A stretch of DNA of 64,000 bases from Candidatus Nomurabacteria bacterium (GCA_943354905.1 CALRDL010000002.1:6478-70477), one strand, 5' to 3'. Positions 31,387 through 57,625 are shown, counted from the stretch's first letter. Notes: generated by a model from the sequence alone, not told the origin. Numbers and translations: made by a program.

Positions 31387-31439
31387 AATTATTAATCAAT
31401 TTGTCGATGTCGGCAAATGATAATTAAAAAATTAATTAT

Positions 31440-32261: not shown

Positions 32262-32342
32262 ATTATCCACAACCATATCGTCCCATACGGACAAAATGGT
32301 CAAAACAGTCGAATTTAAAAGAATTAAGGGTTAAATAAATAT

Positions 32343-35050: not shown

Positions 35051-35288
35051 CTGAAACATTATCAATTAAAGTTTAATTATGGCGAATATGCCACAAATAG
35101 AAATATGAAAAAGAAACAAACACAAGAAAAGAAAACGACTCCAAAAGAAGAAGAGTGGATGAAGCTATTTAGTGAGGTTACTGGAGCAGTGTTTGTTGAT
35201 GTAACACCAGAGAAATTATCACAAAGAAATTTTAAAGGAGTAAGGGTGTTAAATGGTCGTGTTGTAAATAAAAAGAAATTAAAATAAT

Positions 35289-38200: not shown

Positions 38201-38507
38201 GATAAAAGGGCTAAATGGCTCAGATGTCTTTTATCGTAATTTAAAGGTCCAATTTGAGGGTTTAGGGGTCAATAATGGGGTATATGTCTCAATTGTCCTA
38301 GATATTTTCTCTATACTTAAACAGGGAGCAATAATTGACTGGCAGAAAAATATGGATGTTAAAAGAAAAATTAGAAACACAATTGATGACTATTTATATG
38401 ATGTAGTAAAAGGAGAAAAAGGAATAGATATTGATAGTGATTTTATTAAATCAATTATTGATACCATTATGCTTTTAGCTGAAAATAACTTTGAACTATT
38501 TTTATAA
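35289..38507 (+). CDS. hsdR: Type I R-M restriction subunit R (helicase/endonuclease)
   Basis: 1072 aa with PD-(D/E)xK N-domain residues, GSGKSLTMV and DEAHRSQ helicase motifs, and a C-terminal helical domain. Confidence 0.85.
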   Translation: MLEKVNFDEAKQSQLPFIELLFNMGYKYISTDEALRQRGGDTTNFILSDIAVKKLMEINGYEVDEVKYKFSEKDVRDVIDEIEHIQYEGLIDTAQNIYNMIMPTSGGKTIKVSHDGKPISKNFRFIDFKNIENNNFHVTAEFTASGKQNIRPDIVCFINGIPFAIIENKKKSVSIKEAIGDLIKKQSPEYCPKLYTYAQLLVATNASELQYGTTGTLNKFFAVWKEKGKDIKEIDAHIKEIMSKPIDKEVYSQILTDLNGWTKGHTQKIDRVITGQDRGIVSLFEPERLLDLTKNHILFDAGVKKISRYQQYFAIRKMLKRIEEEEIVNEDTTRRKGGLVWHTQGSGKSLTMVMFVKALIEDPKIINPRVIIVTDRRDLDRQIRDTFKNCNLKKEVVQATSGQHLLNLIKEKNLGVITTIIDKFESASKKYANFVDKDNNIFVLIDEAHRSQSGMANFEMNRIIPNACYIGFTGTPLMRSEGESWRKFGGYIDKYTIDDALADKIILPLIYEGRYINLEQNKTQIDKHIDRVSEDMSRKYNENTVSNEHKIKLQKQITADILKNNPQRIEEIARDIEKHFTEHFKDTGLKAQIVAPSKYSAILFQNFFEKRGNINTAVVISDEHDDGDEDNTHKIEVVKYLDKIRKNHSSITKYEKDVIESFKHGEGGVEIIIVVDKLLTGFDAPRNTVLYLSKDLHDHGLLQAIARVNRLFENNKLPKTAGYIIDYSENAKNIDTAMKLFGNYDENDVKGTLIDVSEKINELEQSYGLIHDLFNEIKNSSDDEVYLQFLKDEAKREMFYKSLNDFIRNLNECFILQDFVHEFKDKIGMYKKDLKKFMEIRKSASLLYRERVDLSEYKQSLIKILDKYVDAKGVELLTKQVNITDREQFKEAVENLGSNKSKAEAIASQTQRTISEQMYKDPEFFERFSKKIEEIIEKMRLGKLADIEALKQMRLISDDVLNKKGDDLPKEIKGLNGSDVFYRNLKVQFEGLGVNNGVYVSIVLDIFSILKQGAIIDWQKNMDVKRKIRNTIDDYLYDVVKGEKGIDIDSDFIKSIIDTIMLLAENNFELFL

Positions 38508-39620: not shown

Positions 39621-41198
39621 ATGAACAAACCAAAATATTTTCTCTATGCTCGCAAGTCCACAGAAGATGATGACAGACAAGTCATGTCCATTGAAGCACA
39701 GCTTTTTGAATTGCGTGAATTTGCGAGCAGAGAAAATCTTGAAATTCTTGAAGAATTTCAAGAGTCAAAAAGCGCAAAGAGTCCGGGACGAAGTGTCTTC
39801 GGCGAAATGATGAATAAAATTGAAAGTATGGATGGTGTTGGTATTCTTGGATGGCACCCGGATCGTTTAGCGAGAAATTCAATTGACGGTGGACGCATCA
39901 TTTATGCCGTAGACACTACAAAAATAGTTTCTTTACGCTTTCCGACATTTTGGTTTGAACCCACACCGCAGGGGCTGTTTATGCTTCAAGTGGCATTCGG
40001 ACAAAGTAAATATTATTCTGACAACCTAAAACAGAATGTTGAGCGAGGTTTTCGCCAAAAACTGCGACGAGGTGAATGGCTAACGCGCGCGCCATTTGGT
40101 TATGTGAACAATTTAATTACGCACAATATTGAACCTGATCCGGTGAAATCTAAAATCATCGTGCGCGCGTACAAAGCGTACGCAACAGGTTCACATACTC
40201 TCGTTTCGTTATCGCAGTTTTTGGCGGAACATGGTGTTGTCCAAAAGTCCGGAACGCCACTTGTCAAAGCTTCCGTGCAAAGAATGTTATCCAATCGCGC
40301 ATATCTCGGCCTCGTCAAACACCACGGCGAGTTCTTCACCGGAAGCTTTGCGTCAATTCTTTCTCCAACACTATTTGAAGCTGTGCAAAAAGTTTTAGAG
40401 AGACGAGCACATCCGAGACATAGCAAGATATCTCACAATTTTCCATTCACCGGTCTTTTTCGATGCGCTGAATGTGACAGTATGATTTCCGCACAATGGG
40501 CAACTGGAAAATGTGGTGGGCGGTATCGGTACTATCGATGCTCGAAAAAACGCGGTGTCTGTTTACAAAAATATCTTCGTGAAGATCTGCTCGTCTCCCA
40601 AATCAGAGAACAGCTTCAAGCAGTGTCGCTTCCCGAAGAGTGGTCGGATTATATGCTCAAAAAGGTAGAAAGATTTGAGCATGAAGAAACCAACGCTTCA
40701 GAAAGTCGGCTCGGGCAGATGAAAGAAGATTTAAAAATGCTTGAAGCGAAACTCGACGCATTAGTTGATTTATACTTAAACAAAGATATTGAAAGAGAAA
40801 TATATTTAGTGAAAAAAGATATTTTAATGCGTCAAAAAATCTCGCTTCAAGCCAAATCTTCATCTACCCGAGCCGAGAGAAAGAATTGGGTCGAACCCCT
40901 GCGGAAATGGATTTTGGATTCAAAACACGCGGGGTTTCTCGCTACGAGTGAAAATCTCCACGAAATGAGAGATTTTCTTCGTTCCTTTGGAACGAACCCC
41001 GCGCTGAATGACAAAACTATTTCAATCTCATTTTGCCCGCCCTCCATTTTCACCTGCACCCGCAAGGCGGATTTCATTTCATCACTTCATACCGCGCCTT
41101 TGGCGCGCCCGCTTTTTTCGCTTTCTGCCGAGGAAGTTTCAATTTGCGGACAGAGTGAGATTCGAACTCACGGTCCTTTTAAGGGGACGGCGGTTTAG
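39621..41198 (+). mobile_element. Large serine recombinase (resolvase/invertase catalytic domain plus recombinase domain plus zinc ribbon). The annotated C-terminus reads through the right inverted repeat and tRNA, so the true stop is uncertain
   Basis: Catalytic-Ser motif YARKSTEDDDRQVMSIEAQ, resolvase fold (GILGWHPDRLAR), and zinc ribbon CAECDSM...CGGRYRYYRC. Confidence 0.7.
41018..41149. repeat. Right terminal inverted repeat of the serine-recombinase element, ending exactly at the 3' end of the minus-strand tRNA
   Basis: Reverse complement of 39453-39591. The last bases (..ATTTGCGG) overlap the tRNA acceptor/discriminator. Confidence 0.75.
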
Positions 41199-41233
41199 TA
41201 AACCGCTCCCGTAAACCACTTGGGTATCTGTCC
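41147..41233 (-). tRNA. Type II (long variable arm) tRNA, Ser-like, with apparent anticodon ACT (unusual); CCA not encoded
   Basis: Minus strand: acceptor GGACAGA/TCTGTCC with discriminator G, D-stem CCC/GGG, anticodon stem-loop GCGGT-TTACTAA-ACCGC, long variable hairpin GTCC..GGAC, T-arm GTGAG-TTCGAAT-CTCAC. Confidence 0.45.
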
Positions 41234-41333
41234 AGATACAAATCGAGTATAGCAGAAAAAAATAAAAAATGCAGAGAAATTTATGGAAAAATACAAGAAA
41301 TATGTTAGAGTAGTTAAGTAATAGATTACGTAT

Positions 41334-41423
41334 GGAGCCGTGGGAGAGCGGTCTAATCTACATCTTTGCTAAAGATGCAGGGGTTAAACCCCCTCGCGAG
41401 TTCGAATCTCGCCGGCTCCGCCA
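41334..41423 (+). tRNA. tRNA-Ser(GCU), CCA encoded
   Basis: Acceptor GGAGCCG/CGGCTCC with discriminator G followed by CCA, anticodon stem-loop CATCT-TTGCTAA-AGATG, long variable arm CAGGGGTTAAACCCCCT, T-arm GCGAG-TTCGAAT-CTCGC. Confidence 0.7.
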
Positions 41424-45171: not shown

Positions 45172-46404
45172 TTAGTTTCTTATCTCTAATGGAGCCCTTT
45201 TAACACACTTGTCGCAATTTTCACAATTTACTTGCATATAGTCCTCGTTAAAATATCCGAGTAAGAATTTACGACGGCACTTGTACAAATTCCCATACTG
45301 GATTACTTTGTCCAAATTCTCTTGCGCATTTTTCTGTTCTTTTATATCGGTCATGCCTCGAATAAAATAGTCTTGCTTAAATTTATCAGCATAAGAGAAC
45401 AACAGTACACACCTTGACGGGGAACCATCTCTGCCTCCTCGACCAGTCTCTTGATAATATCCTTCGATGGATTTCGGCAGACTTTGATGGATGACAAGAC
45501 GCACATCTGGTTTGTCTATGCCCATACCGAAAGCGATAGTCGCAACCATGATCTGTACTTCATTTTTAATAAATTTGTCTTGATTATCCCTTCTAGTTGT
45601 CGCATCTAGCCCTGCATGATATGCTGCTGATTTATGGCCATAATGGTTTAAATTATGCACTAAATTCTCTGTGTCATTACGCGAGAAACAATATATTATG
45701 ACACTTTTGTTTTTATGACTTTGTAATAACGCAAGAATTAATTTTAAAGAATCTTTTTTAGGTATGACTTCATAGCTCAGATTTGGTCTATTGAAACTAG
45801 AAATAAAAACTTGGGGATTATCTAAATTAAGTTGTTTGACTATATCCTCACGGACCCTCGTGGTGGCAGTAGCAGTCAGAGCAATGATTGGAATCGTGGA
45901 GAATTTTTTTCGTAATAGTTTTAAATTTCTGTAGTCGGGCCTAAAATCATGACCCCATTCCGAAATACAATGTGCTTCGTCAATCGCGATTAAACTGATC
46001 TTTAGAGTGTGTAAAAATTCTTCGAAACCCGGCACTGACAATCTTTCGGGAGCTATGTATATAATTTTTAATTTTCCTGTTTTGGCTCGATTCATTACAT
46101 TCACAATCTCTATTTGAGAAAGTGTGCTGTTTATTAGCTCAGCGGTTATACTTTTTTTATTTAGGGCATCTACCTGATCTTTCATTAAAGAAATCAAGGG
46201 TGATATGACAACCGCCACCCCTTCCAGCATCATAGCTGGTAACTGAAAACACAGGGATTTTCCTCCACCTGTAGGCATTAGCACTACGCAATCTTTTCCA
46301 ACCAAAACTCGCTCAATTATTTCTTTCTGAAGTGGTCTAAATTCTTCGTAGCCAAAATGTTTTTTTAAAATACCTTGCAAGGCAGATTTATCTTGATTTA
46401 CCAT
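45172..46404 (-). CDS. recQ: ATP-dependent DNA helicase RecQ (short form, no HRDC)
   Basis: Contains GYEEFRPLQKEII, PTGGGKSLCFQLPA, DEAHCISEWGHDFRPDY, and the zinc-binding C...C..C..C. Confidence 0.85.
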   Translation of the reverse strand: MVNQDKSALQGILKKHFGYEEFRPLQKEIIERVLVGKDCVVLMPTGGGKSLCFQLPAMMLEGVAVVISPLISLMKDQVDALNKKSITAELINSTLSQIEIVNVMNRAKTGKLKIIYIAPERLSVPGFEEFLHTLKISLIAIDEAHCISEWGHDFRPDYRNLKLLRKKFSTIPIIALTATATTRVREDIVKQLNLDNPQVFISSFNRPNLSYEVIPKKDSLKLILALLQSHKNKSVIIYCFSRNDTENLVHNLNHYGHKSAAYHAGLDATTRRDNQDKFIKNEVQIMVATIAFGMGIDKPDVRLVIHQSLPKSIEGYYQETGRGGRDGSPSRCVLLFSYADKFKQDYFIRGMTDIKEQKNAQENLDKVIQYGNLYKCRRKFLLGYFNEDYMQVNCENCDKCVKRAPLEIRN

Positions 46405-46559
46405 ATTGGTATATTATACTTTATAGAAAAATAGTCTATATTTATTTTAGCTCTAGACTAGCTAACAAATGCTAAACTAGAGAATATGTTGAAAAGAAAA
46501 GCTCGTTTAGGAAAAAGTAAAGGAAAGATGAGTATAAGAAAAATACTTTGCAAACATAC

Positions 46560-46588
46560 TTGACAATACCCCCTAGGGGTATATACTC
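46560..46588 (+). promoter_or_regulatory. Promoter (TTGACA-N16-TATACT) whose spacer carries a perfect GC-rich palindrome ATACCCCCTAGGGGTAT; predicted CsoR operator
   Basis: Located immediately upstream of csoR-copA. A palindrome of this type resembles remembered CsoR boxes. Confidence 0.5.
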
Positions 46589-46593
46589 TCATT

Positions 46594-46857
46594 ATGCAAA
46601 CAAATAAGCCAAAACTTATACGCCATCTGAAAATAATTGAGGGGCAAATAAGGGGTCTACAAAATATGATAGAGAAAGATACTTATTGTATTGATGTTAT
46701 CACTCAAACATCTGCCATAAAACAATCACTCTCTAGTATAGAAGATACTCTCATGGAAGGACATCTTGGACATTGTGTGGTCAATCAAATAAAGAAAGGT
46801 CAAACAGAAAAAGCTACAGGTGAAATATTAAAAGTGTATCGCCTAAAACGCAAGTAG
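46594..46857 (+). CDS. csoR: CsoR/RcnR-family metal-sensing transcriptional repressor
   Basis: 87-aa four-helix family: L.RI.GQ..GL.....Y C.DV..Q..A.......H L..HC, which is the Cys-His-Cys metal site pattern. Confidence 0.75.
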   Translation: MQTNKPKLIRHLKIIEGQIRGLQNMIEKDTYCIDVITQTSAIKQSLSSIEDTLMEGHLGHCVVNQIKKGQTEKATGEILKVYRLKRK

Positions 46858-46871
46858 AATTTTATAAAATT

Positions 46872-49226
46872 ATGAACCACACACAAACATATAGAATAAA
46901 AGGAATGCACTGTGCCTCGTGTGCTGGGATTATTGAGAAAACTTTCAAAAAAATGGATGGTGTTGATTTGGCTGAAGTAAACTACGGAACTGAAACTGCG
47001 AAGGTTGCTTTTGATCCGTCAAAGACAAATCCTCACCATCTCTCGGAGAATATAGAAAAGCTTGGCTACTCTCTTGATATACCAGAAACAGCTGAAGCTA
47101 TGGGTATGTCTGAAAATGAGCATGCTACTCATTTAGGTTTGAACCAATCAAAAAAAGAGAAATTAGCTGAAGTCGCAGACATGCGATCAAAAGTTTTGTC
47201 TGCAATTCCGCTAGCCATCTTTAGTATTTTTGTTATGGGATGGGATATTTTTGCTCAATACGGAATAGTCTCGAAAATGAGTGTGACAATATATGAATTC
47301 GTACACCATATTCTTCCAATTTTTGCTACCTATGTACTCTTTGTGGTCGGAAAACCATATCTCCTTGGTTTTTATAGATTTTTGCGTTACGGCAAAGCCA
47401 ATATGGATACGCTTATCGGTATTGGTACTGTCTCGGCTTTTTTATACAGCTTTGCTGTTACGGCTTTTGAAGATGTTTTGAAGCCGTTTATAAATGTTGA
47501 TCACACTTACTATGATGTAACGATTGTCGTCATTACTTTTATCGCACTCGGAAAATATTTAGAAGCAAGGTCTAAAATAAAGACGGGAGATGCTATTGAA
47601 AAACTTCTCAATCTTCAGGCAAAAACCGCAATGGTTATTCGAGATGGAAAAGAAATGGAAATTTCAGTTGATCAAGTAGTTCACGGTGATTTAATTATTA
47701 TAAAACCCGGAGCTAAAATTCCGGTTGATGGTGTGATAACCGAGGGTATGTCTTATATCGATGAGTCGATGGTTACAGGAGAACCTATGCCTACTCAGAA
47801 AAAAGTTGGCGATAATGTTGTGTCAGGCACATTGAATACCAGCGGATCATTCACCTTTAAAGCTACTAAAGTGGGATCGGAAACCTTGCTTGCTCAGATT
47901 ATAAAAATGGTAGAGGAGGCACAAGGGAGCAAAGCACCAATCCAAGCTCTTGCGGATAAAATCTCAAGCGTTTTTGTGCCTGTTGTAATTGTTCTCTCAT
48001 TCTTGACTTTGGGATCATGGCTTTTGTTTGGAACTGGTCCTTTAGGATTTTCGCAAGCATTATCATTTGGGCTCGTTTCTTTTGTTGGAATTTTAGTCAT
48101 TGCTTGTCCTTGTGCGCTTGGTCTTGCAACGCCAACCGCTATTATTGTCGGAGTGGGTAAAGGAGCAAAAGAGGGTATTCTCGTAAAAGATGCGGCAACT
48201 CTCGAGAAGCTCCACAAAGTAGATATTGTCATTGTTGATAAAACAGGAACGATTACTATTGGAAAGCCGACACTTGTCAATATAGTTTTGGCTCCTCAAG
48301 GTCAAACCTTAGGAATTCAAAAAGGTTCGACCTTTTCCCACCAAGAGGTGGAATTTATATCCATACTCGCTTCTCTTGAGAAAAAATCTGAACATCCTAT
48401 TGCTCATGCGATTGTGAATTATGTCGAAGATCCTGTAAGGGCACAGGAAAAAAATATCTCAATATCAGATGTTTCAAACTTTGAAAGCATTCAAGGTAAG
48501 GGTCTTAAGGGAATAATTGACGGCACAGAATATTTTGTCGGAAATGCAAAACTGATACAAGGCCTTGGTGTATCATTTGATGCATCAAAAATGGAGCAAT
48601 ATACTTCGGAAGGCAAGACTCCTGTTATTCTCACAACCAAAGAAAGAGTTCTAGGATTTGTTATGGTTTCTGATGAGGTAAAAGTTGCATCAAAGCAGGC
48701 TATTACTGATCTCCACAAGCTCGGTATCAAAGTGATTATGCTTACAGGTGATGATGAAAAGGCAGCCAAGCACATTGCATCGCTTGTCGGTATTGATGAA
48801 GTAGTTGCGCATGTTTTACCACAAGACAAGCTCGCAAAAATTAAAGAGCTTCAGTCACAAGGGAAGATTGTCGCTATGGCAGGGGATGGTGTGAACGATG
48901 CACCTGCTTTGGCCCAAGCCGACGTAGGTATCGCTATGGGGACTGGAACGGATGTGGCGATTGAGTCGGCAGGAATTACACTACTCGGCGGAGATATTTC
49001 CAAACTTGTGAAAGCAATAAAACTTTCAAAAATGACTATGCGAGGTATTAAACAAAATCTTTTCTGGGCATTTATTTACAACATCGTGGGCATTCCACTT
49101 GCAGCTGGAGTTTTCTATCCCGTCTTCGGCTGGCTCCTATCACCTGTATTTGCAGGATTTGCTATGGCGATGTCGTCAGTGTCTGTGGTCGGAAATTCAC
49201 TGCGAATTAAAGGAATGAAATTATAA
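46872..49226 (+). CDS. copA: Copper-translocating P1B-type ATPase
   Basis: N-terminal HMA domain GMHCASCAG, TGE, CPC (ACPCALGLATP), DKTGTIT, and GDGVNDAP. Confidence 0.9.
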   Translation: MNHTQTYRIKGMHCASCAGIIEKTFKKMDGVDLAEVNYGTETAKVAFDPSKTNPHHLSENIEKLGYSLDIPETAEAMGMSENEHATHLGLNQSKKEKLAEVADMRSKVLSAIPLAIFSIFVMGWDIFAQYGIVSKMSVTIYEFVHHILPIFATYVLFVVGKPYLLGFYRFLRYGKANMDTLIGIGTVSAFLYSFAVTAFEDVLKPFINVDHTYYDVTIVVITFIALGKYLEARSKIKTGDAIEKLLNLQAKTAMVIRDGKEMEISVDQVVHGDLIIIKPGAKIPVDGVITEGMSYIDESMVTGEPMPTQKKVGDNVVSGTLNTSGSFTFKATKVGSETLLAQIIKMVEEAQGSKAPIQALADKISSVFVPVVIVLSFLTLGSWLLFGTGPLGFSQALSFGLVSFVGILVIACPCALGLATPTAIIVGVGKGAKEGILVKDAATLEKLHKVDIVIVDKTGTITIGKPTLVNIVLAPQGQTLGIQKGSTFSHQEVEFISILASLEKKSEHPIAHAIVNYVEDPVRAQEKNISISDVSNFESIQGKGLKGIIDGTEYFVGNAKLIQGLGVSFDASKMEQYTSEGKTPVILTTKERVLGFVMVSDEVKVASKQAITDLHKLGIKVIMLTGDDEKAAKHIASLVGIDEVVAHVLPQDKLAKIKELQSQGKIVAMAGDGVNDAPALAQADVGIAMGTGTDVAIESAGITLLGGDISKLVKAIKLSKMTMRGIKQNLFWAFIYNIVGIPLAAGVFYPVFGWLLSPVFAGFAMAMSSVSVVGNSLRIKGMKL

Positions 49227-49263
49227 ATGGTCGCATTATTAAATTAATTAATTAAAAAATATT

Positions 49264-49632
49264 ATGAAAAACATTCAGAAAATTATTCTATTTTTCACTT
49301 CTATTGTTCTCCTGCATTTTTTTGCTAACACTTTCGGCTTGTATGAGATGTCCTTTGTTTGGTTCGATAATATTTTGCATATATTAACTGGCATTGGATT
49401 CGGATTAGTGTGGCTGTGGGTTTTCAGAGGCTCATTAAAAGGAGCAATTATCTTTGTTGTTGCACTTGCTATACTCTGGGAACTCCTCGAGTTTGGTTTC
49501 TTGCAATTATTCCCAATCTACGCCTATAAATTAAGTATTTTTTCACCTAATATTGGAGAAGCTTTAGAAGATATCTTTTCTAATATATTCGGTGTAGCCA
49601 TCATGGCAATATATTTAAAATTAAAGGAATGA
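49264..49632 (+). CDS. Small membrane protein (hypothetical)
   Basis: Hydrophobic helices; the gene ends within the junction repeat TTAAAGGAATGAAATTATAA. Confidence 0.3.
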   Translation: MKNIQKIILFFTSIVLLHFFANTFGLYEMSFVWFDNILHILTGIGFGLVWLWVFRGSLKGAIIFVVALAILWELLEFGFLQLFPIYAYKLSIFSPNIGEALEDIFSNIFGVAIMAIYLKLKE

Positions 49633-49679
49633 AATTATAAAGGTCGAATATTATTAAATTAATCAAAAAATAAATTATT

Positions 49680-49901
49680 ATGAAACTTTCAAAAATATTT
49701 CATGTTATAGGTGCTATTGTCGGATGGGTTGGAGTTATTGCTCTTTTGAGCGCTTGGTTTGCAAGTAAAAATGGTTTAGTATTAGGAATGAGTGAGACGC
49801 ATCTTTTTATGGATGCAATAGTTCTTGTGCTTGTTGCTATCTGGCTTCAACTTGGAACAATTCACCACATGATGTTGGAGAAGACTGGGGAGAAAATATA
49901 A
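49680..49901 (+). CDS. 73-aa two-TM protein, paralogue family member 1 (C-terminal IHHMMLEKTGEKI)
   Basis: Near-identical family members lie at 51264..51485 and 52840..53061. Confidence 0.45.
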   Translation: MKLSKIFHVIGAIVGWVGVIALLSAWFASKNGLVLGMSETHLFMDAIVLVLVAIWLQLGTIHHMMLEKTGEKI

Positions 49902-49910
49902 CTATCATTT

Positions 49911-50303
49911 ATGATTACTCAAAAACTAAAAACCATATTTTTTATATCAATTCCAATCTTTATTGCTCACGGCATTGAAGAGTATTTTACTGGCTTATAT
50001 AATTTTGATTTTTTCTATCAATCTTTTTCTAATCCAAAATTAGTATTTGTAATTGTTGTTCCTGTCTTAGCAAATATTTTATTAATAGTTTCTTATGTAC
50101 TTGTTAAAAAAAATAAATGGGTGTTTGGTTTATCTTTTTTACTAGGGCTACTCTTTATTTTTGAATTAACTCATATCTATGAAGCTATTATGGTAAGGGG
50201 CTATTATCCTGGATTATATACTGCAATTCCTTTACTAATTGTCGGATTTCTTTTCTGGAAAGAATTATTAAAAAATTATAAAAGTCGAACATTATTAAAA
50301 TAA
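49911..50303 (+). CDS. Small membrane protein (hypothetical)
   Basis: Three or four TM helices. Confidence 0.3.
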   Translation: MITQKLKTIFFISIPIFIAHGIEEYFTGLYNFDFFYQSFSNPKLVFVIVVPVLANILLIVSYVLVKKNKWVFGLSFLLGLLFIFELTHIYEAIMVRGYYPGLYTAIPLLIVGFLFWKELLKNYKSRTLLK

Positions 50304-50314
50304 ATAAAAATAAC

Positions 50315-50938
50315 ATGAATAATAAAATTGTATTTGGAATAGGAGGAGTCGTAGTCGGTTTAGTTTTAGCAGGCATGTTTGGGGGAAGTATGTTTTCTGC
50401 ATTTAACAATGGGAATAATAGAATGATGGGTAACAATCAAAATACAGGAAGTAGTCAAATGATGGGGAGTATAGACAAACATTTCATCGAGCAGATGATT
50501 CCGCACCATGATGGAGCTGTTGCGATGGCAACACTCGCTCTCGAAAAATCAAAGCGTCCCGAAATTAAAACTCTCGCGAACGCAATAATTGAAGCTCAAA
50601 ATAAAGAAATAGTGGATATGCGAAGCTGGTATAAAAATTGGTTTGGTAAAAATGTTCCAAAAGAAAGTACAGGTATGATGGAGGGAGGAATGATGTCCGG
50701 GGGTGGAATGCATATGGGAGGAGATGAAGATATTAAGGCTCTAAAAAATGCGATAGATTTTGACAAGGCATTTCTTGAGGGGATGATCCCACATCATCAG
50801 TTAGCTATAATGATGGCACAGATGTTGAAGTCAGGAACTGATAGACCAGAGATGCTGACACTTGCGGATAATATCATCGAATCACAATCTAAAGAGATAA
50901 AACAAATGCAAGGTTGGTATAGTAATTGGTATAAATAA
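50315..50938 (+). CDS. DUF305-family protein (copper-resistance-associated four-helix protein)
   Basis: Two F.E.MIPHH repeats plus a Met/Gly-rich linker (MMEGGMMSGGGMHMGG). Confidence 0.7.
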   Translation: MNNKIVFGIGGVVVGLVLAGMFGGSMFSAFNNGNNRMMGNNQNTGSSQMMGSIDKHFIEQMIPHHDGAVAMATLALEKSKRPEIKTLANAIIEAQNKEIVDMRSWYKNWFGKNVPKESTGMMEGGMMSGGGMHMGGDEDIKALKNAIDFDKAFLEGMIPHHQLAIMMAQMLKSGTDRPEMLTLADNIIESQSKEIKQMQGWYSNWYK

Positions 50939-50988
50939 AATTATAAACATCTGTCGAGATTATTAAAAGTTAATTAAAATAAAAATAT

Positions 50989-51243
50989 ATGCATAATTCA
51001 TCATGTTGTGGGGGAAAAGGAGAAAAAGATAGGTCATGTTGTAATGCAGAAGATAAGTCTTGTTGCGGGGAAGGAAAAACATCTGGAAATATGGTCGTGG
51101 ATGTAGTGTGTGGCATGGAAGTTGATCCGAAAGAAACCAAGATTCAATTGGAGTACAAAAATAAAGTATATTACTTCTGTAACGTTGATTGCAAAAGTAA
51201 ATTTGAAAACGATCCTGAGAAATACGTTGTTAAAAATAATTAA
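50989..51243 (+). CDS. YHS/TRASH-domain metal-binding protein with an N-terminal Cys-rich segment
   Basis: Contains DVVCGMEVD....YKNKVYYFCNVDC (YHS domain) and an N-terminal SCCGG..SCCN..SCCGEG segment. Confidence 0.6.
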   Translation: MHNSSCCGGKGEKDRSCCNAEDKSCCGEGKTSGNMVVDVVCGMEVDPKETKIQLEYKNKVYYFCNVDCKSKFENDPEKYVVKNN

Positions 51244-51263
51244 TAAATTAATTAAAAAATATT

Positions 51264-51485
51264 ATGAAACTATCAAAATTATTTCACGTTCTAGCTGCTG
51301 TTGCGGGATGGGTTGGAGTTATTATGCTTTTCAGCGCTTGGTCTGCCGGAGAAAATGGTACAGTGTTTGGGTTTACACAAACACATCTTTTTACTGATGC
51401 AGCCATACTTGTTTTGGTTGCTATCTGGATGCAACTTGCTACTACGCATCATATGACGCTTGAGAAGACTGGAGAGAAAATATAA
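51264..51485 (+). CDS. 73-aa two-TM protein, paralogue family member 2
   Basis: MKLSKLFHVLAAVAGWVGVIMLFSAW...ATTHHMTLEKTGEKI. Confidence 0.45.
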   Translation: MKLSKLFHVLAAVAGWVGVIMLFSAWSAGENGTVFGFTQTHLFTDAAILVLVAIWMQLATTHHMTLEKTGEKI

Positions 51486-51510
51486 GATATTAAAAATAAA
51501 CCTTTAATTT

Positions 51511-52818
51511 ATGGATAAATCAAGCAAAAAATATGTAGTTATTATTCTGGGTATTTTCCTCATTGGTTTGAGTATTTTACTATTTGCTCGGCAAGTTGAG
51601 ATTTTATCACTTTTTAAATTCGTGTTCATTCGAGTTTTCGGTCTAGTGATCTCTCTTGGAGCTGCTGGATTCTTTATTTTCTGGATTATTCGCAAATTCC
51701 ATTCGTTGAAGATCGCTGCCATTTTCTCAGTTATTCTTGTTGGAGTTTCTTTCTTTCTTTTTATGCCTTATGCATTTCCGGAGCGACTGCAGTACCCTTT
51801 CTTTTTGAAAACATTCGGACCTTCTGATGGGCCGAGTCTCCCGCTCAAAAACGTGCTGACGTTCTTTTTGAAGCAATCAAATATGGAGCGGGTATCAGAT
51901 ATCGCCCGAGATCCTAATGATCTGCCACCACCAATCACACGTATCTCCCCTGAGCGCGTAAAAATTGAACTAGAAACACAAGAGGTAATCGCTGAAATGG
52001 CAGATGGGGTAAAGTTTAATTATTGGACATTTAATGGCACTGTGCCAGGACCGTTTCTGCGTGTGAGAGAGGGAGACACTGTTGATCTAACTCTTAAAAA
52101 CAGTGCTTCCAGTCTCCATCATCATAATATTGACCTTCATGCCGTTACCGGGCCTGGTGGCGGAGCGGCTGTTACTAATATTGCCCCTGGTGAATCCAAA
52201 ACCTTTACTTTCAAAGCCATAAATCCAGGACTGTACGTCTATCATTGTGCGCATCCAAATGTTGCTACCCATGATGCTCATGGTATGTATGGTCTTATTC
52301 TCGTCGAACCAAAGGAGGGTCTTCCAAAAGTTGATAAGGAATTTTATGTTATGCAAGGTGAATTTTATAGCACTGGTGGATTGGGAAAGAAAGGACTCCA
52401 GATCTTTGACGCTCAAAAGATGCTTGACGGAAAGCCTGAATATGTGGTCTTTAACGGTCGTGTTGGAGGATTAAACAGTAAAATGAAAGCTCAAGTTGGA
52501 GAAAAAATACGAATATTTGTGGGCAACGGAGGTGTGAACTTTATTTCCTCTTTTCATGTGATCGGAGAAATATTTGACACTGTGTATCCCGAAGGATCAA
52601 TGGGCGGAGCGATGTTTAAGAATGTTCAGACTACATTGGTTCCCGCAGGAGGATCAGCAATCGTCGAGTTTGATACCGAAGTACCCGGCAAGTATATACT
52701 AGTAGACCATGCTCTTTCAAGATTAGACCGTGGTGCCTGGGGGGTACTAGAACTTATTGGTGAACCAAGCAAAGATATCTTTGACGGAGTGTTTGATATT
52801 AATAATAAAAGTCATTAA
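51511..52818 (+). CDS. nirK: Copper-containing nitrite reductase (NirK-type two-domain cupredoxin) with an N-terminal membrane anchor
   Basis: HHHNIDLHAVTGPGGGA corresponds to the NirK HNIDFHAATG region holding T1 and T2 Cu His ligands. YHCAHPNVATHDAHGM has H-C adjacent and then C-x7-H-x4-M, the T1 Cu ligands. About three TM helices at the N-terminus. Confidence 0.6.
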   Translation: MDKSSKKYVVIILGIFLIGLSILLFARQVEILSLFKFVFIRVFGLVISLGAAGFFIFWIIRKFHSLKIAAIFSVILVGVSFFLFMPYAFPERLQYPFFLKTFGPSDGPSLPLKNVLTFFLKQSNMERVSDIARDPNDLPPPITRISPERVKIELETQEVIAEMADGVKFNYWTFNGTVPGPFLRVREGDTVDLTLKNSASSLHHHNIDLHAVTGPGGGAAVTNIAPGESKTFTFKAINPGLYVYHCAHPNVATHDAHGMYGLILVEPKEGLPKVDKEFYVMQGEFYSTGGLGKKGLQIFDAQKMLDGKPEYVVFNGRVGGLNSKMKAQVGEKIRIFVGNGGVNFISSFHVIGEIFDTVYPEGSMGGAMFKNVQTTLVPAGGSAIVEFDTEVPGKYILVDHALSRLDRGAWGVLELIGEPSKDIFDGVFDINNKSH

Positions 52819-52839
52819 ATTAGTTTATAAAAATATATT

Positions 52840-53061
52840 ATGAAAATATCAAAAATAATGCATGTTGCTAGTGTTATCGTGGGGTTGATCGGAGTGGTTG
52901 TCTTTGTTAGGACACTTGGAGTTCCGTCAGATGGAATGGTTTTTGGAATCGCAAAGTTTGATGCGCTATTTTGTGTAGCAATTCTTTTCCTTATTGCTAT
53001 ATGGGTTCAGATTGGAACAATTCACCACATGATGTTGGAGAAGACTGGGGAAATTATTTAA
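52840..53061 (+). CDS. 73-aa two-TM protein, paralogue family member 3
   Basis: ...IGTIHHMMLEKTGEII; followed by the junction repeat. Confidence 0.45.
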   Translation: MKISKIMHVASVIVGLIGVVVFVRTLGVPSDGMVFGIAKFDALFCVAILFLIAIWVQIGTIHHMMLEKTGEII

Positions 53062-53083
53062 AGGAATGAAATTATAACAATTT

Positions 53084-53491
53084 ATGAAAATTAAAACTAT
53101 TTGTATTTGTGGGTCTATGAAACTTAAAGATAGGATTATAGAAATAGGAGAAAAACTTAAAGTTTTGGGTTATGATGTTTATACTCCAAACATTTCAGAA
53201 ACTAATAATTATTCTGTAATGACAGAAGAAGAACAAAAAATTCATAAGAATAGAATGATTGTCGATCATCTTTATAAAATAAAAAAATCAGATACAATTT
53301 TAGTTATAAACGAAAAACTCAATGACATAGAAGGATATATCGGAGCAAATTCATTTCTTGAAATCGGATTTGCTTTTGCCCTAGAAAAGAAAATATTTTT
53401 GCTTAACAATATTCCTCAACAACCGAATTCAGTTGAGATAAAAGGTATGTTACCAGAGGTTATTAATGGTGACTTATTAAAAATAAAATAA
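53084..53491 (+). CDS. Nucleoside 2-deoxyribosyltransferase-like Rossmann protein (hypothetical)
   Basis: ICGSMK... at the N-terminus and a ...EIGFAFA.. acidic motif near the C-terminus resemble the NDT/Rcl-like family. This is weak. Confidence 0.3.
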   Translation: MKIKTICICGSMKLKDRIIEIGEKLKVLGYDVYTPNISETNNYSVMTEEEQKIHKNRMIVDHLYKIKKSDTILVINEKLNDIEGYIGANSFLEIGFAFALEKKIFLLNNIPQQPNSVEIKGMLPEVINGDLLKIK

Positions 53492-53495
53492 ATTT

Positions 53496-54113
53496 ATGAT
53501 TTCGTGGATAATTATTTGGTTAATTTTTTGGGTTAGTGCGCTAGGTTTTACTAGTTATCTTTTTAAAAAGCACAGGATTACTTATTATGAAAAATCTTGG
53601 CAACATACTCTTTTTTTCATAATCCTCTCACTAATCCTTTTTGTTGTTTATCAAAACCAGTTTTCTGTATATTTTACCAGTCTTTCCTTGTGGCATTTAA
53701 TGGCTGTTGTAGCTTTATTTATAATCTGGCTTCTTGTTCCAAATCTTTACAAAAATGATTACTACGCTAAAAAAGAAAGGTTTGGTTATCAGTTACCAAA
53801 GTTTTTTGAAATTCTTTTTCAAGATATTTGTTTCTTAGGCGGGCTACTTACTTTCGGACTTTCTCCCGTTTTTTTTGGTTTAGTATTTTTTGTAGTTCAC
53901 ATACCTGCCGTATTTCTCCTCCCGAAAAAATTTGCTCTTTTTCCAATAATCGGCTCACTCTTTGGTGGAATAATTTTTGCATATTTGCAGTCTCAGGGAA
54001 TTTTAGGATTTTTAGTTGCATTTTTAATACATTTATCATTTTGGAGTTCCTTACATTACGCACTCTCACAATCAAAAAGTGGCTTTTTGGGGATAATGCC
54101 ACTAAAAAGATAA
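53496..54113 (+). CDS. Integral membrane protein (hypothetical)
   Basis: Six hydrophobic segments. Confidence 0.3.
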   Translation: MISWIIIWLIFWVSALGFTSYLFKKHRITYYEKSWQHTLFFIILSLILFVVYQNQFSVYFTSLSLWHLMAVVALFIIWLLVPNLYKNDYYAKKERFGYQLPKFFEILFQDICFLGGLLTFGLSPVFFGLVFFVVHIPAVFLLPKKFALFPIIGSLFGGIIFAYLQSQGILGFLVAFLIHLSFWSSLHYALSQSKSGFLGIMPLKR

Positions 54114-54205
54114 ATTTTATGAAAAATCAAACACAACAAAACAATAAAAACCAATTAGCGATTTTTGAAAATTTTAAGATATAAAAAAGTAAGAACGAAA
54201 ATTAT

Positions 54206-54941
54206 ATGAAAAAATTAAATTCACAAATTGTCATATATAAAGACCAAAATGGAAATATTAAAATAGATGTGCGTTTTGATGGTGAAAATGTGTGGCTCAC
54301 ACAGGATTTGATGGCAGAGCTTTTTGGAAAGGGAAGATCTACAATCACAGAACATATTCAGAACATATTTAAAGAAGGAGAATTGGATGAAAAACTGGTA
54401 AGTCGGGATTTCCGACATACCACTAAGCATGGGGCAATAAAAGGTAAAACACAAGACTCTTCTATAAAATATTATAATCTTAAAGTTATAATTGCTGTAG
54501 GATATAGAGTTAAATCATCTCAAGGTACGAGATTTAGGCAATGGGCGACAGAAAGATTAGGGGAGTATGTTTTGAAAGGTTTTGTGGTGGATAGCGAACG
54601 ATTGAAAAATCCAGATTTACCTTTTAATTATTTTGAAGAACTTGAAAGAACTGTAGCAGATATACGCACTAGCGAAAAAGTTTTTTATCGTAAAATCACT
54701 GATATTTATGCTACGAGTATTGATTACGATCCGACGAGCGATGCAAGTAAATGAAAGAAATATTTTACAAGATGCAGGAAAGGTATCTCATCAGCTGATG
54801 GTAGAACTTGCTGAAAAGAAGTTTGATGAGTATAAACAAATAGAAGCCAAGCAAGATGTGGATTTTGATGAAGTAATACTTAAAGCGCTTGAGAGCGTAA
54901 AAAAGAAGGATATAAAAGTAGTTAAAGATAAGAAGTTATAA
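54206..54941 (+). pseudogene. rhuM: RhuM-family (virulence-associated/Bro-N-related) gene, frameshifted near 54,750
   Basis: The RhuM N-part VIIAVGYRVKSSQGTRFRQWATERL.EYV.KGF is in ORF 54206..54754. The C-part ...ERNILQDAGKVSHQLMVELAEKKFDEYK is in ORF 54708..54941 in another frame. Confidence 0.5.
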
Positions 54942-54966
54942 ATTATAAATATGGTAAAATAAAATT

Positions 54967-55500
54967 ATGATATATTTCGTACGACATGGAGAAACTGAGT
55001 CAAATATAAGAGGTGTTTTTGCTGGGCAAAAAGACGATTCTATTCTTACTGAAAAAGGAAAAGAACAAGCAAGAATTACAGCTCAAAATATAAAATCTCA
55101 AATTCCAAAAATTGATAGAGTTATCTGTTCACCATTAAAAAGAACAGTTGAGACGGCACAAATAATTGCAAAAGATATTAACTTTGATTTATATAAAATA
55201 GAAATTGATAACCGTATTATTGAACACGACACAGGGAGTATGACTGGGACTCCGTTCGCAGGTGTTTCGTCTTTCGCTTTAACAACTTGTGATGGAGCAG
55301 AAGATAGTGATAAATTTCGTGACAGAGTATTTTCTTTTTTCAAAGATTTATCAGAAAATCCTGAAACTATTTTAGTTGTTAGTCATGGAGCAGTAGGGAG
55401 AATGTTAGAAACTATCAAAAAAAATGGTGATACAAAATTACTCTACGACATTCCTGTTTGGGATAATGCTTCCGTGACTAAAATTGATTGGATTAAATAA
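54967..55500 (+). CDS. Histidine phosphatase family protein (second copy in the window)
   Basis: MIYFVRHGETESNIRGVFAGQ.D..LT.KG..QA (RHGE catalytic motif) and a distal SHGA. Confidence 0.65.
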   Translation: MIYFVRHGETESNIRGVFAGQKDDSILTEKGKEQARITAQNIKSQIPKIDRVICSPLKRTVETAQIIAKDINFDLYKIEIDNRIIEHDTGSMTGTPFAGVSSFALTTCDGAEDSDKFRDRVFSFFKDLSENPETILVVSHGAVGRMLETIKKNGDTKLLYDIPVWDNASVTKIDWIK

Positions 55501-55503
55501 TTT

Positions 55504-55875
55504 ATGGACAAAAATCAGTTAGCAATTTTTGAAAATTTTAAGATTAGGCGACATTTTGATGAGAAAGAAGAAAAATGGTATTTTTCTGTGGTGGATATTG
55601 TGGCGGCGTTGACAGATTCTATTAATCCAACAGATTATTTAAAGAAGTTACGAAAGAGAGATTTAGAGGTTGGAACATACATAGGGACAAATTGTCCCCA
55701 TGTAGAAATGCTTACGAAAACTGGAAAATATAGGAAAACATTAGCTGGAAACCCAGAAAATTTACTGCGTATTATTCAAGCTATACCATCTAAAAAAGCC
55801 GAACCTATAAAACTTTGGTTGGCAAAGGAGAATTTTTTATTAGCAAAACAAAAAGAAGAAAGCATCGCGTCTTAA
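55504..55875 (+). CDS. Bro-N domain protein. A 5' fragment of the same gene (MKNQ..NQLAIFENFKI) is duplicated at 54118-54183
   Basis: NQLAIFENFKIRRHFDEKEEKWYFSVVDIVAALTDS is the Bro-N consensus. Confidence 0.5.
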   Translation: MDKNQLAIFENFKIRRHFDEKEEKWYFSVVDIVAALTDSINPTDYLKKLRKRDLEVGTYIGTNCPHVEMLTKTGKYRKTLAGNPENLLRIIQAIPSKKAEPIKLWLAKENFLLAKQKEESIAS

Positions 55876-55882
55876 TTGACGA

Positions 55883-56938
55883 TTGCACGATGTGATTTCG
55901 CTAAATCATATGAAAACATATACATTCCATGTTTCTGGCACACATTGCGCATCATGCAAAATCTTGATTGAAGATATTTTGAACGAGCAAGATTTTATTA
56001 AAAAATCAAAAGTGGATTTGAAGAAAGAAACTGTGGAAATTGAAACTGATGGCGAAAAAGATCCCGAAGAAATCATAAACGTATTAAATGAAAAAATAAA
56101 ACTAAATGGTTATATGCTTAGTGTCGTTAGGCAAGACCTAACGACAGAGGATAGCGATGTAATTTGGAAAGCTCTGCCTATTGGGCTCGCTTTTCTAGTC
56201 CTCTTTTTTATTTTACAAAAGTCCGGTATTCTAAATCTCGGATTTGGGAGCGAGGCAACACCTACAACCAGTTTCATGATTGGTCTTATTGCTTCAGTGT
56301 CTTCCTGTCTTGCTGTTGTCGGTGGGCTTGTGTTGTCTCTTTCAGCAAAGGTATCACAAGATAAAATTAACGACACTAAAACTTTTCTGCTTTTTCACAT
56401 AGGAAGACTGTTCAGTTTTGCACTGCTCGGAGGAGTGTTGGGGATAATGGGGCAAGCGATAGGGATCAATGTTACTTTTACTGCAGTTTTGGGACTCCTA
56501 GCTTCAATGGTGATGTTGGTGCTTGGATTAAATTTAGTGGGAATATTTGCGAAAAACAAAATTGCACTATCTTCTGACATTTTTCAAAAAGTTTTTTCTA
56601 TCTTTAAAAAAATAGAACATAAAACACTCACTCCACTTTTAGTTGGCTTTGGAACATTCTTTTTACCTTGCGGATTTACTCAAGCGATGCAAGTCGCCGC
56701 TTTATCTAGTGTCTCATTTCTTTCGGGAATGCTTATTATGTTTGCTTTCGCTCTCGGGACTTTGCCGATGCTCATATTACTCTCATTTGGTTCGGCATCT
56801 TTTGCTCATAGTAAACATGGCAAACACGCACCTCTCTTCTTTAAATCTGCAGGCATAGTCGTGATTGGGCTTGGAATATTTGGATTACTGACAGGACTCA
56901 CAGGTTTGGGTATTATTAATCCACTATTTAGTATTTAA
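55883..56938 (+). CDS. HMA-domain (GTHCASC) fused to a multi-TM permease (DsbD_2/UreH-like); putative metal transporter
   Basis: An N-terminal ferredoxin-like HMA with the CxxC motif, then six to eight TM helices with FLPCGFTQ. Confidence 0.5.
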   Translation: MHDVISLNHMKTYTFHVSGTHCASCKILIEDILNEQDFIKKSKVDLKKETVEIETDGEKDPEEIINVLNEKIKLNGYMLSVVRQDLTTEDSDVIWKALPIGLAFLVLFFILQKSGILNLGFGSEATPTTSFMIGLIASVSSCLAVVGGLVLSLSAKVSQDKINDTKTFLLFHIGRLFSFALLGGVLGIMGQAIGINVTFTAVLGLLASMVMLVLGLNLVGIFAKNKIALSSDIFQKVFSIFKKIEHKTLTPLLVGFGTFFLPCGFTQAMQVAALSSVSFLSGMLIMFAFALGTLPMLILLSFGSASFAHSKHGKHAPLFFKSAGIVVIGLGIFGLLTGLTGLGIINPLFSI

Positions 56939-56956
56939 TTTTGATATAATTACCAG

Positions 56957-57358
56957 ATGAACAAAATAGTTTTAATTATTATAACTCTTGGACTTGTTGT
57001 CGTTCTCGGCATCGTATTTTGGGGTGGTGGTTCAAAACCACAGACAGGTGAAAATGTTGCAGACGAAGGACAAAGTGTTGAAATAAAAAATGGTGTCCAA
57101 TATATCACCATTGATGCGAAAGGCGGGTATTTCCCCAAAGTCGTTACAGCTCAAGGTGGTATACCTACAAAACTTATTGTAAAAACAAACGGTACTTTTG
57201 ACTGCTCGGCATCGCTTGTAGTCCGTTCTGTCGGATTTCAAAAGATTTTACCCCCAACAGGAGAAACAGAAATTGACCTAGGCATTCCTAAATCAGGCGA
57301 GCCAGTCGTAGGGGTCTGCGGTATGGGAATGTATAATTTTCAAATTAATTTTAGTTAG
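56957..57358 (+). CDS. TM-anchored cupredoxin-like domain protein
   Basis: An N-terminal TM helix plus a small beta domain with C...GVCGMGMY. It is frequently paired with HMA permeases. The family assignment is tentative. Confidence 0.35.
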   Translation: MNKIVLIIITLGLVVVLGIVFWGGGSKPQTGENVADEGQSVEIKNGVQYITIDAKGGYFPKVVTAQGGIPTKLIVKTNGTFDCSASLVVRSVGFQKILPPTGETEIDLGIPKSGEPVVGVCGMGMYNFQINFS

Positions 57359-57459: not shown

Positions 57460-57532
57460 GCCGTTATAGCTCAGGTAGTAGAGCACGTCATTGGTAATGA
57501 CGAGGTCAACAGTGCAAATCTGTTTAACGGCT
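57460..57532 (+). tRNA. tRNA-Thr(GGT)
   Basis: Acceptor GCCGTTA/TAACGGC, D-arm GCTCAGGTAGTAGAGC, anticodon stem-loop CGTCA-TTGGTAA-TGACG, T-arm AACAG-TGCAAAT-CTGTT (an atypical T-loop). Confidence 0.55.
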
Positions 57533-57625
57533 CATTTTCTGTCATTTATTTGCACTTAAAACTAGTTTCAAGTATAATATATTCAAATTTGAAACAAATT
57601 TGAAAGTCAATATTATAAAATATTT

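Follow-up and report, generated by a model that had tools for sequence, protein, structure and literature searches.

The copper operon and its three S genes

We describe a copper operon in a 64,000-nt stretch of DNA from a Candidatus Nomurabacteria bacterium (GCA_943354905.1 CALRDL010000002.1:6478-70477; the whole stretch is referred to as the window, and positions are counted from its first letter). The operon contains three copies of a gene for a 73-aa protein with two transmembrane (TM) segments. The family of these proteins, helical hairpins encoded in copper operons of Patescibacteria, is unnamed; ‘S’ is our working name for it, and the three copies are S1, S2 and S3. The operon also has a csoR gene, an operator overlapping the promoter and a gene for a P1B-type Cu-ATPase, as a CsoR-regulated operon does. 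All operon features given below are on the + strand.

The promoter and the CsoR operator occupy positions 46560–46590 (TTGACA-ATACCCCCTAGGGGTAT-ATACT), with the −10 box TATACT ∼7 nt 5′ of the csoR ATG. This promoter is the top sigma-70 match of the region (11 of 12 positions), and the operator is a G/C-tract pseudopalindrome; many related loci show the same layout 5′ of csoR. Inside the window operon we saw neither a convincing internal promoter nor a convincing terminator. The gene for the copper-sensing repressor, csoR (46594–46857; PF02583, E=2.4e-24), is followed by copA (46872–49226), which encodes the sole CopA of the window, a Cu P1B-type ATPase with an N-terminal HMA domain, E1-E2_ATPase and Hydrolase domains and the C-terminus ..NSLRIKGMKL*. 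Next come ORF122 (49264–49632), a gene for a membrane protein with a weak DUF2238 match that is inserted into the copA-to-S junction, and S1 (49680–49901). Between S1 and S2 (51264–51485) lie genes for an HXXEE-domain membrane protein (49911–50303; PF13787, E=1.2e-8), a DUF305/CopM-type metallochaperone with an N-terminal TM segment (50315–50938; PF03713, E=8.9e-47; NF049983 CopM) and a YHS-domain protein with a Cys-rich N-terminus (50989–51243; PF04945, E=5e-13). S2 is separated from S3 (52840–53061) by a gene for a homologue of NirK-type copper nitrite reductase (51511–52818; TIGR02376, 332.7 bits versus a cut-off of 296.3) that carries an N-terminal TM extension of ∼125 aa. Downstream of S3, a 2.8-kb block of non-copper genes (53062–55909) precedes the genes for an HMA-DsbD_2 membrane protein (55910–56938) and a Cupredoxin_1 protein (56957–57358), the latter being the final gene of the copper cluster.

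A model's reading of this stretch from the letters alone (the sequence-only reading) had picked out three paralogous 73-aa ORFs, which we confirm at the positions given above. It also described them as near-identical proteins in tandem, and neither description holds. At the DNA level the three copies form one 230-nt repeat family in which S2 and S3 are 77% and 66% identical to S1; the respective protein identities to S1 are 70% and 48%. The copies are spaced by 1584 and 1576 nt and are interleaved with other genes.

The S family

A profile search produced 795 relatives of S, almost all of them ∼73 aa long and encoded in metagenome-assembled genomes of Patescibacteria, where they are annotated at most as hypothetical proteins. 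In an exhaustive HMMER search against a library of 1.84 billion proteins we obtained 78 S clusters at 50% identity, nearly all of them stand-alone proteins of about 40–97 aa; the matches span 38–343 aa, most being about 55–95 aa, and the 343-aa match is single and marginal. The dN/dS values (ratios of non-synonymous to synonymous substitution rates) between S orthologues are 0.10–0.32. Since length and sequence have been kept in the 795 relatives, and with dN/dS in this range, the three ORFs of the window are real genes.

The AlphaFold2 model of S is a helical hairpin (pLDDT 89.8) with helices at residues 3–27 and 39–69 joined by a short loop. The K+R count is 1.95 at the N-terminus, 1.92 at the C-terminus and 0.91 in the loop; with more positive charge at the ends than in the loop, its distribution indicates an N-in/C-in topology, with both termini predicted to be cytoplasmic. 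At thirteen positions (K2, K5, H8, G15, G18, G36, L51, A53, W55, H62, H63, M64 and E67) conservation extends to 81 or more of 85 S sequences, and the signature K2, K5, H8, G15xxG18, G36, W55, H62-H63-M64, E67 is complete in S1, S2 and S3. Across the wider family, conservation is 90% or more for H8, L51 and E67, and most members have H63. In the helical register H8 falls on the G15 face, opposite T60–H63, and a His/Met/Glu site would therefore be expected at the cytoplasmic face of the membrane.

Searches of Pfam (36 members, E-values up to 1) and NCBIfam identified no family for S. The match to DUF4134 was below that family's cut-off and, like matches to holin and PMT fragments, was dismissed as generic two-TM noise; the FixS match was weak (E=0.35, one of the 36 members) and not significant. 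Neither sequence profiles nor Foldseek comparison of folds gave a significant match in the Protein Data Bank (PDB), the best being hairpins of pore-forming toxins with E>1. S has no HMA match, and S1 and S2 contain no Cys.

S genes in other genomes

We scanned GTDB with one genome per species and obtained 206 S relatives; the context counts given here and below refer to the best 80 loci, with 83 S genes. Co-directional copper genes lie no more than 8 kb from S in 75 of the 80 loci; csoR is among them in 59 loci and copA in 62. The 5′ neighbour is usually DUF305, CopA or YHS; on the 3′ side the usual neighbour, found for 25 of the 83 S genes, is HMA-DsbD_2 followed by a cupredoxin. Minimal csoR-copA-S operons are present in loci L002, L003, L006, L010, L045 and L067 (L numbers designate related loci). 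The claim that the small proteins form a conserved family tied to copper genes is thus borne out, far beyond the contig on which it was made: S proteins make up a genuine family of membrane proteins of copper operons, conserved but so far undescribed and without annotation. As for copy number within ±8 kb, 75 of the 80 loci have one S gene and four have two; three are seen only in the window.

Close to S and on the same strand, NirK is encoded in about 20 of the 80 loci. Related loci with NirK include L005, L011, L013, L017–L020, L022, L025, L026, L032, L036, L042, L044, L046, L058, L070, L072 and L074, in which it is often paired with an HXXEE protein. The role of nirK in the candidate phyla radiation (CPR) was called ‘questionable’ by Danczak et al. 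2017 (PMC5581439). In the window, and in roughly one in four related loci, nirK is a close and co-directional neighbour of copper genes; this context points to a role linked to copper homeostasis, instead of or besides denitrification.

Other small membrane proteins rich in His, Met or Cys are encoded directly 3′ of S in Patescibacteria copper loci. They include DUF2933 proteins (L036 and L069), DUF5676-like proteins of 87–90 aa (L042, L043, L047 and L054; in L093 such a gene follows a homologue of ORF122) and a protein of the form MHDHNN..MMWMMIPC..GGCCH (L044, L051 and L057). From the variety of these neighbours it follows that copper operons of Patescibacteria collect several kinds of tiny membrane proteins, which may handle metals. 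S itself was compared with two of these kinds and assigned to neither: hhalign gave a probability of 4.7% against the DUF2933-like neighbours, with no Pfam match to DUF2933 at E-values up to 1, and 0.7% against the neighbours resembling DUF5676 (a 2TM family).

Origin of the three S copies

Two subtypes of S can be distinguished by residues 41 and 45, namely A (H41/D45) and B (D41/C45). S1 and S2 belong to subtype A, whose copies have no Cys, and S3 belongs to subtype B; the two subtypes also co-occur in L013, L034 and L046. S2 is 84%, 79% and 77% identical to its orthologues in L001, L002 and L007, respectively, versus only 66–70% to S1. Since S2 is nearer to foreign orthologues than to S1, and S3 is of a different old subtype, the copies are, on this comparison, old and not recent local duplicates. 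The presence of three copies would then be accounted for by two old subtypes (A, represented by S1 and S2, and B, by S3) and one extra A copy that was accreted.

The model of the sequence-only reading, a recent local tandem duplication seeded by a 20-mer (see the next section), is already contradicted by these data, and we regard it as very improbable. It could draw on the exact short repeats seen at several junctions and on the similar spacing of the copies; the genes between the copies, however, are mutually unrelated, so the near-equal spacing does not mark a duplicated unit and was treated as coincidence. S2, furthermore, has no 20-mer, a single S copy is usual in other loci, and the comparison with L001 and the co-occurrence of subtypes elsewhere are contrary to local duplication.

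The copies still exchange sequence. A 40-nt tract of S1 (49852–49891) is identical to S3 (53012–53051) at 40 of 40 positions, versus 58% identity over nt 1–174. The tract encodes the C-terminus of subtype B (..GTIHHMMLEKTGE), and because of this the comparison shows gene conversion with S3 as the donor and S1 as the recipient. S1 and S2, for their part, have a common tail, GAGAAAATATAA (EKI*), which is present in no orthologue.

A second assembly of the same population (L081; ENA ERZ27280224) is 99.985% identical to the window over 13.4 kb, with two single-nucleotide polymorphisms. One of them, G to T at L081 position 8945 (window 52933), changes the S3 codon for Gly32, a residue conserved among the three paralogues of the window, from GGA to TGA and cuts S3 to 31 aa. 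TGA is a Gly codon in some CPR lineages; here it was taken as nonsense under genetic code 11. With this premature stop in L081, the third S copy is suggested to be dispensable.

The 20-mer and the rearranged junctions

The 20-mer TTAAAGGAATGAAATTATAA occurs exactly three times in the 64 kb, always in the operon, at 49207–49226, 49621–49640 and 53058–53077; the sequence-only reading had counted three copies correctly and placed their starts at 49206, 49615 and 53055, a few nucleotides too early. No further match was found in the window at up to three mismatches, with 0.12 expected by chance, so that a generic AT-rich motif, the outcome that would have undone the proposal, is not what we see. 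The whole metagenome collection contains 11 exact matches. Two of these, single in their loci, are the ends of copA in L084 and L087, whose CopA proteins are 77% identical to that of the window; the other nine are in unrelated contexts. Related variants of the 20-mer end copA in L002, L003, L004, L006, L007, L014, L023 and L045. As copA of other species ends in it, the 20-mer is, by this comparison, the native 3′ coding end of copA (..SLRIKGMKL*).

The observation that the same DNA serves as a stop context in three frames proved correct. The copA stop TAA is at 20-mer positions 18–20 in the first copy, the ORF122 stop TGA at positions 10–12 in the second and the S3 stop TAA at positions 2–4 in the third; holding a stop in each frame, the 20-mer would close whichever ORF is joined to it. 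It does not mark each S junction, as had been claimed, since it flanks S1 on the upstream side only and S3 on the downstream side only and is absent from both sides of S2. A conserved leader was likewise proposed for every copy. An exact 24-nt leader, AATTAATTAAAAAATATTATGAAA, does precede S2 (51246–51269) and also ORF122 (49246–49269), exactly 2000 nt apart, and it is found nowhere else in the window even at three mismatches; S1 and S3 have only degenerate versions.

The second 20-mer is part of a longer duplication. The copA-to-S junction, consisting of the copA tail, a linker described in the next section, a leader and ATGAAA, lies at 49205–49269 and is duplicated at 49619–49688 (65–70 nt), so that the two copies flank ORF122. 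Two homologues of ORF122 were found; they are 128–129 aa long and end in ..KYHKQHE* or ..LKSHE*. The window protein ends in ..KLKE*, encoded by the 20-mer, and since the homologues end otherwise its native tail has been replaced. In locus L093, on an unrelated metagenome contig, a relic of a copA 3′ end (GTGGTCAGCAATTCACTACGACTTAAAGCAAAGAAAAT, positions 893–966) lies directly 5′ of an ORF122 homologue, although a gene other than copA is found upstream. It is therefore in more than one genome that parts of the copA tail move together with the genes 3′ of them.

The third 20-mer forms the left edge of the 2.8-kb block, which breaks the otherwise conserved adjacency of S and HMA-DsbD_2. Inside the block, a 35-nt direct repeat with 91% identity (54146–54180 and 55510–55544) flanks 1.36 kb holding a split RhuM gene (54206–54754 and 54708–54941) and a His_Phos_1 gene. 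The first copy of this repeat is a truncated Bro-N start (mini-ORF 54119–54184), and the second is the intact Bro-N start. The RhuM/His_Phos_1 insert matches the pattern seen at ORF122, that is, an insert flanked by the duplicated start of the downstream gene.

We conclude that the extra 20-mers are footprints of rearrangement. Of the earlier proposal, a duplication or recombination scar driving the expansion of the family, the recombination at junctions stands; the 20-mer, being native to the copA end, is not the driver of the expansion. The rearrangements would have reused the conserved copA-to-S junction once around the inserted ORF122 and once at the 2.8-kb insert after S3. Their mechanism could have been a Campbell-type integration of circles via short homology, or a duplication followed by replacement.

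The intercistronic linker

Following the copA tail, the junction carries a linker of the form TATAAA-GGTCGA-(1–4 nt)-ATTATTA and then an AT-rich stretch; the distance from the TCG core to the start codon is about 30–46 nt. The linker is present four times in the window, each time inside the copper operon. The first (linker and leader, 49227–49263) has a GGTCGC core at 49229–49234, continues with ATTATTAAATTAATTAATTAAAAAATATT and is the best match of the linker sequence model, with 27.9 bits; the second (linker and leader, 49641–49679) is AGGTCGAATATTATTAAATTAATCAAAAAATAAATTATT. The cores of the third and fourth are at 50277–50297 (TTATAAAAGTCGAACATTATTA) and 50942–50965 (TATAAACATCTGTCGAGATTATTA). 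The last codons of the HXXEE gene (..KNYKSRTLLK*), as well as those of the HXXEE gene in L063, are encoded by the linker motif, the general form being ..KxYKxRxLL*. In other species the linker is also found at copA-to-S junctions, after HXXEE and DUF305, and before S genes of both subtypes. A model built from the sequence of the linker alone gave 21 matches; each lies within a copper operon and has the orientation of that operon, and the rest of the window has none.

The linker also opens the predicted 5′ untranslated region (UTR) of a second class of csoR promoters, with the layout TTGACA, 17 nt, TAnnnT, ∼8 nt, AGGTCGA. In this promoter/operator class TTGACA-AATAGGGTATGGGGGTA-TAGAGT-ATAGG.. 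replaces the ATACCCCCTAGGGGTAT palindrome. The class is seen in L026, L027, L042, L043, L046, L047, L048, L051, L052, L054, L055, L070 and L073, and most of these promoters are followed by a GGTCGA-type leader (AGGTCGA or a near variant).

Several identities were tried for the linker and rejected. A structured RNA found no support, with zero pairs predicted by RNAalifold and no Rfam match at E-values up to 1 across 46300–53600. No acceptable −35/−10 pair that would make the linker an internal sigma-70 promoter was seen by scan or by eye. By inspection only, it has no arm symmetry, and its spacing varies, unlike an attC- or dif-like recombinase site. The resemblance to the copA tail (∼52% identity in AT-rich sequence), which would make the linker a degenerate tandem copy of it, is indistinguishable from chance.

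The junction DNA as a whole, from the copA tail through GGTCGA..ATTATTA to the leader, could instead of a scar be a selected functional intercistronic element, a possibility we hold tentatively, as less probable than its alternative. The element would be an RNA-processing or internal-start site joined to an AU-rich leader free of a Shine–Dalgarno sequence, giving each cistron the same 5′ end, and the likeness of the junctions would promote recombination only secondarily. The conservation of the linker in sequence and position, both where copA meets S in several species and downstream of HXXEE and DUF305, argues for such an element, as do its place at the start of the 5′ UTR predicted for the second-class csoR promoters, the strand and operon specificity of all 21 model matches and the fact that no recognisable Shine–Dalgarno sequence was seen at the cistron junctions read in the window operon. 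Against it are the missing RNA pairs and Rfam match, the failure to find an acceptable −35/−10 pair upstream of the internal copies, the variable spacing between the two conserved blocks, the translation of the motif in HXXEE genes and the fact that the CopA C-terminus accounts for the conservation of the 20-mer. For the linker itself, the most attractive reading is a shared 5′-end/translation-leader element that may also give the homology for the shuffling of modules. A broader combination of claims seems to us doubtful: that these operons consist of modules joined by a portable, strand-specific GGTCGA..ATTATTA leader, which would serve at once as a common 5′ end (processing or start site and translation leader free of a Shine–Dalgarno sequence) and as the homology by which S, ORF122, HXXEE, DUF305 and YHS would be inserted, duplicated and swapped without a dedicated integrase, and that S is at the same time a new class of membrane-embedded copper chaperone or scaffold substituting for CopZ in these minimal cells.

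The array resembles integron attC sites and Xer-dependent pdif sites in that resistance genes are split by a recurring short sequence and vary in order. The likeness is superficial: the cluster has no integron or tyrosine integrase, the window repeats have no inverted-repeat or foldable structure and the spacing of the motifs varies.

Comparison with known systems

PacL proteins of Mycobacterium tuberculosis (DUF1490; PacL1/Rv3269, PacL2 and PacL3) are small membrane proteins encoded with metal P1B-ATPases; PacL3 is in a CsoR-regulated operon, and several PacL paralogues per genome are possible (PMC13043812). Their TM helix contains a conserved Lys and a GxxG motif, and their cytoplasmic C-terminus carries a His motif that binds metal (PMC13043812). 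In S the counterparts are K2/K5, G15xxG18 and H62-H63-M64..E67, the metal binding of the last being putative. S differs from PacL in having two TM helices versus one, no Ala/Glu-repeat cytoplasmic domain and no DUF1490 match (same Pfam search as above), as well as in being ∼20 residues shorter and coming from a different phylum. PacL is best viewed as the closest functional analogue of S. The likeness would be one of function and architecture only, and S lies outside that family.

DUF2933 (PF11666) is an uncharacterised small His-rich membrane protein found in regulator-CopA-cupredoxin clusters of Gammaproteobacteria (PMC8478169). Like S it is short (∼60–70 aa), with a similar N-terminal helix (..SK..IG.VG..) and a His/Met motif after helix 2, and it is encoded directly after S in other Patescibacteria loci; its motif, however, is CPLMHxFxH versus TIHHM.LE in S. 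The cso and cop operons of M. tuberculosis, Listeria and Bacillus have in common with the window csoR, the operator overlapping the promoter and the P1B-ATPase, to which the window adds three S genes, HXXEE, DUF305/CopM, YHS, the NirK-like protein, HMA-DsbD_2, the cupredoxin and the conserved linker.

CopZ and CupA are soluble or anchored Cu(I) chaperones that are encoded beside copA under a copper repressor and hand copper to the pump. S has the same operon position and the same presumed role in handing on copper, but it is an integral membrane hairpin without the HMA fold and without MxCxxC.

Putative function of S

The explanation that we prefer, with a probability of about 0.6 for the whole of it, is that S is a two-helix accessory protein of copper operons and that the extra copies of the 20-mer are rearrangement footprints. 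By analogy we infer that S is a membrane copper-binding accessory acting like mycobacterial PacL. S is a regular component of CsoR-repressed copper-export operons with the layout csoR-copA-(YHS)-(DUF305)-S-(HMA-DsbD_2-cupredoxin), and its insertion into the membrane would leave the two termini cytoplasmic. Copper may be bound at the cytoplasmic face of the membrane, where H8 from the beginning of helix 1 would meet H62-H63-M64..E67 from the end of helix 2; the invariant G15xxG18 may mediate the packing of helices between S molecules or against a partner. S could then be a membrane-embedded protein that binds copper and serves as chaperone or scaffold, both to CopA and to the further membrane copper proteins that the operon encodes.

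Several points weigh against this explanation. Gene context and conserved residues are the only grounds for the putative function; S adjoins NirK, DUF305, YHS and HMA-DsbD_2 too, so that CopA need not be its partner. Type A has no Cys. A His/Glu site would suit not only Cu(I) but also Cu(II) or Zn, and the conserved polar stripe of helix 2 (positions 41, 45, 57, 60, 64 and 67) could line a pore. As to the junctions, the conservation of the linker across species suggests that at least part of the junction repeat is selectively kept and is not only a scar, and the closest available genomes, with only ∼73% nucleotide identity in copA, are too distant to show in what order and by what mechanism the rearrangements took place.

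Two other functions have to be weighed against that of a PacL-like accessory. CcoS/FixS proteins are small membrane maturation factors encoded beside the Cu-ATPase CcoI, and S would resemble them if it were a factor for the assembly of, or copper insertion into, extracytoplasmic cuproproteins (NirK-like protein, cupredoxin, DUF305/CopM). In that role the outer end of helix 2 (H41/D45 or D41/C45) would receive the copper that CopA exports, and S would hand it on. We consider this unlikely, though it has several observations on its side: S2 and S3 flank the NirK-like gene in the window, NirK and HMA-DsbD_2 with cupredoxin recur beside S in the proportions given above, and positions 41/45 are always a potential ligand pair, H/D or D/C. 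Most loci, on the other hand, have no NirK, and there are minimal csoR-copA-S operons; the most conserved residues (H8, H62, H63 and E67) are predicted on the cytoplasmic side, and the FixS match does not reach significance. Still less credible is that S oligomerises so that helix 2 lines a small pore or permease for copper. Such a pore would fit the conserved stripe on one face of the helix, [H/D]41, [D/C]45, L49, A53, Q57, T60, M64 and E67, as well as the conserved small-residue motifs G15xxG18 and G36 and the pore-forming helical hairpins that head the non-significant fold matches. It is an inference only, with no significant fold or sequence match, and if a resistance operon induced by copper encoded a passive cation pore, copper would enter through it, down the membrane potential.

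Other features of the window

Directly 3′ of the cupredoxin gene, which closes the copper cluster, lies a gene for tRNA-Thr (57460–57533). On the 5′ side, ∼5.4 kb from csoR, the nearest recombinase is encoded (39621–41198); it is a large serine recombinase with Resolvase, Recombinase and Zn_ribbon_recom domains, and its gene is adjoined by two tRNA-Ser genes (41146–41423). The stretch from 40 to 57.5 kb might be an integrated element, but it gives no clear compositional island signal. Elsewhere the window has a tmRNA gene at 17253–17647 (Rfam, 109 bits) and, at 29869–38507, large ORFs that resemble a type I restriction-modification cluster, as judged from the ORF sequences alone.

Implications

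The genomes of Patescibacteria are tiny, and a 73-aa gene that is kept in their copper operons across many species is therefore probably important. The exact short-repeat mosaic of the window shows how copper operons of Patescibacteria get remodelled. If S is indeed a membrane copper chaperone or scaffold, it would be a simple target for heterologous testing, and the PacL type of small P-ATPase partners would be extended to a second, unrelated fold and to another phylum.

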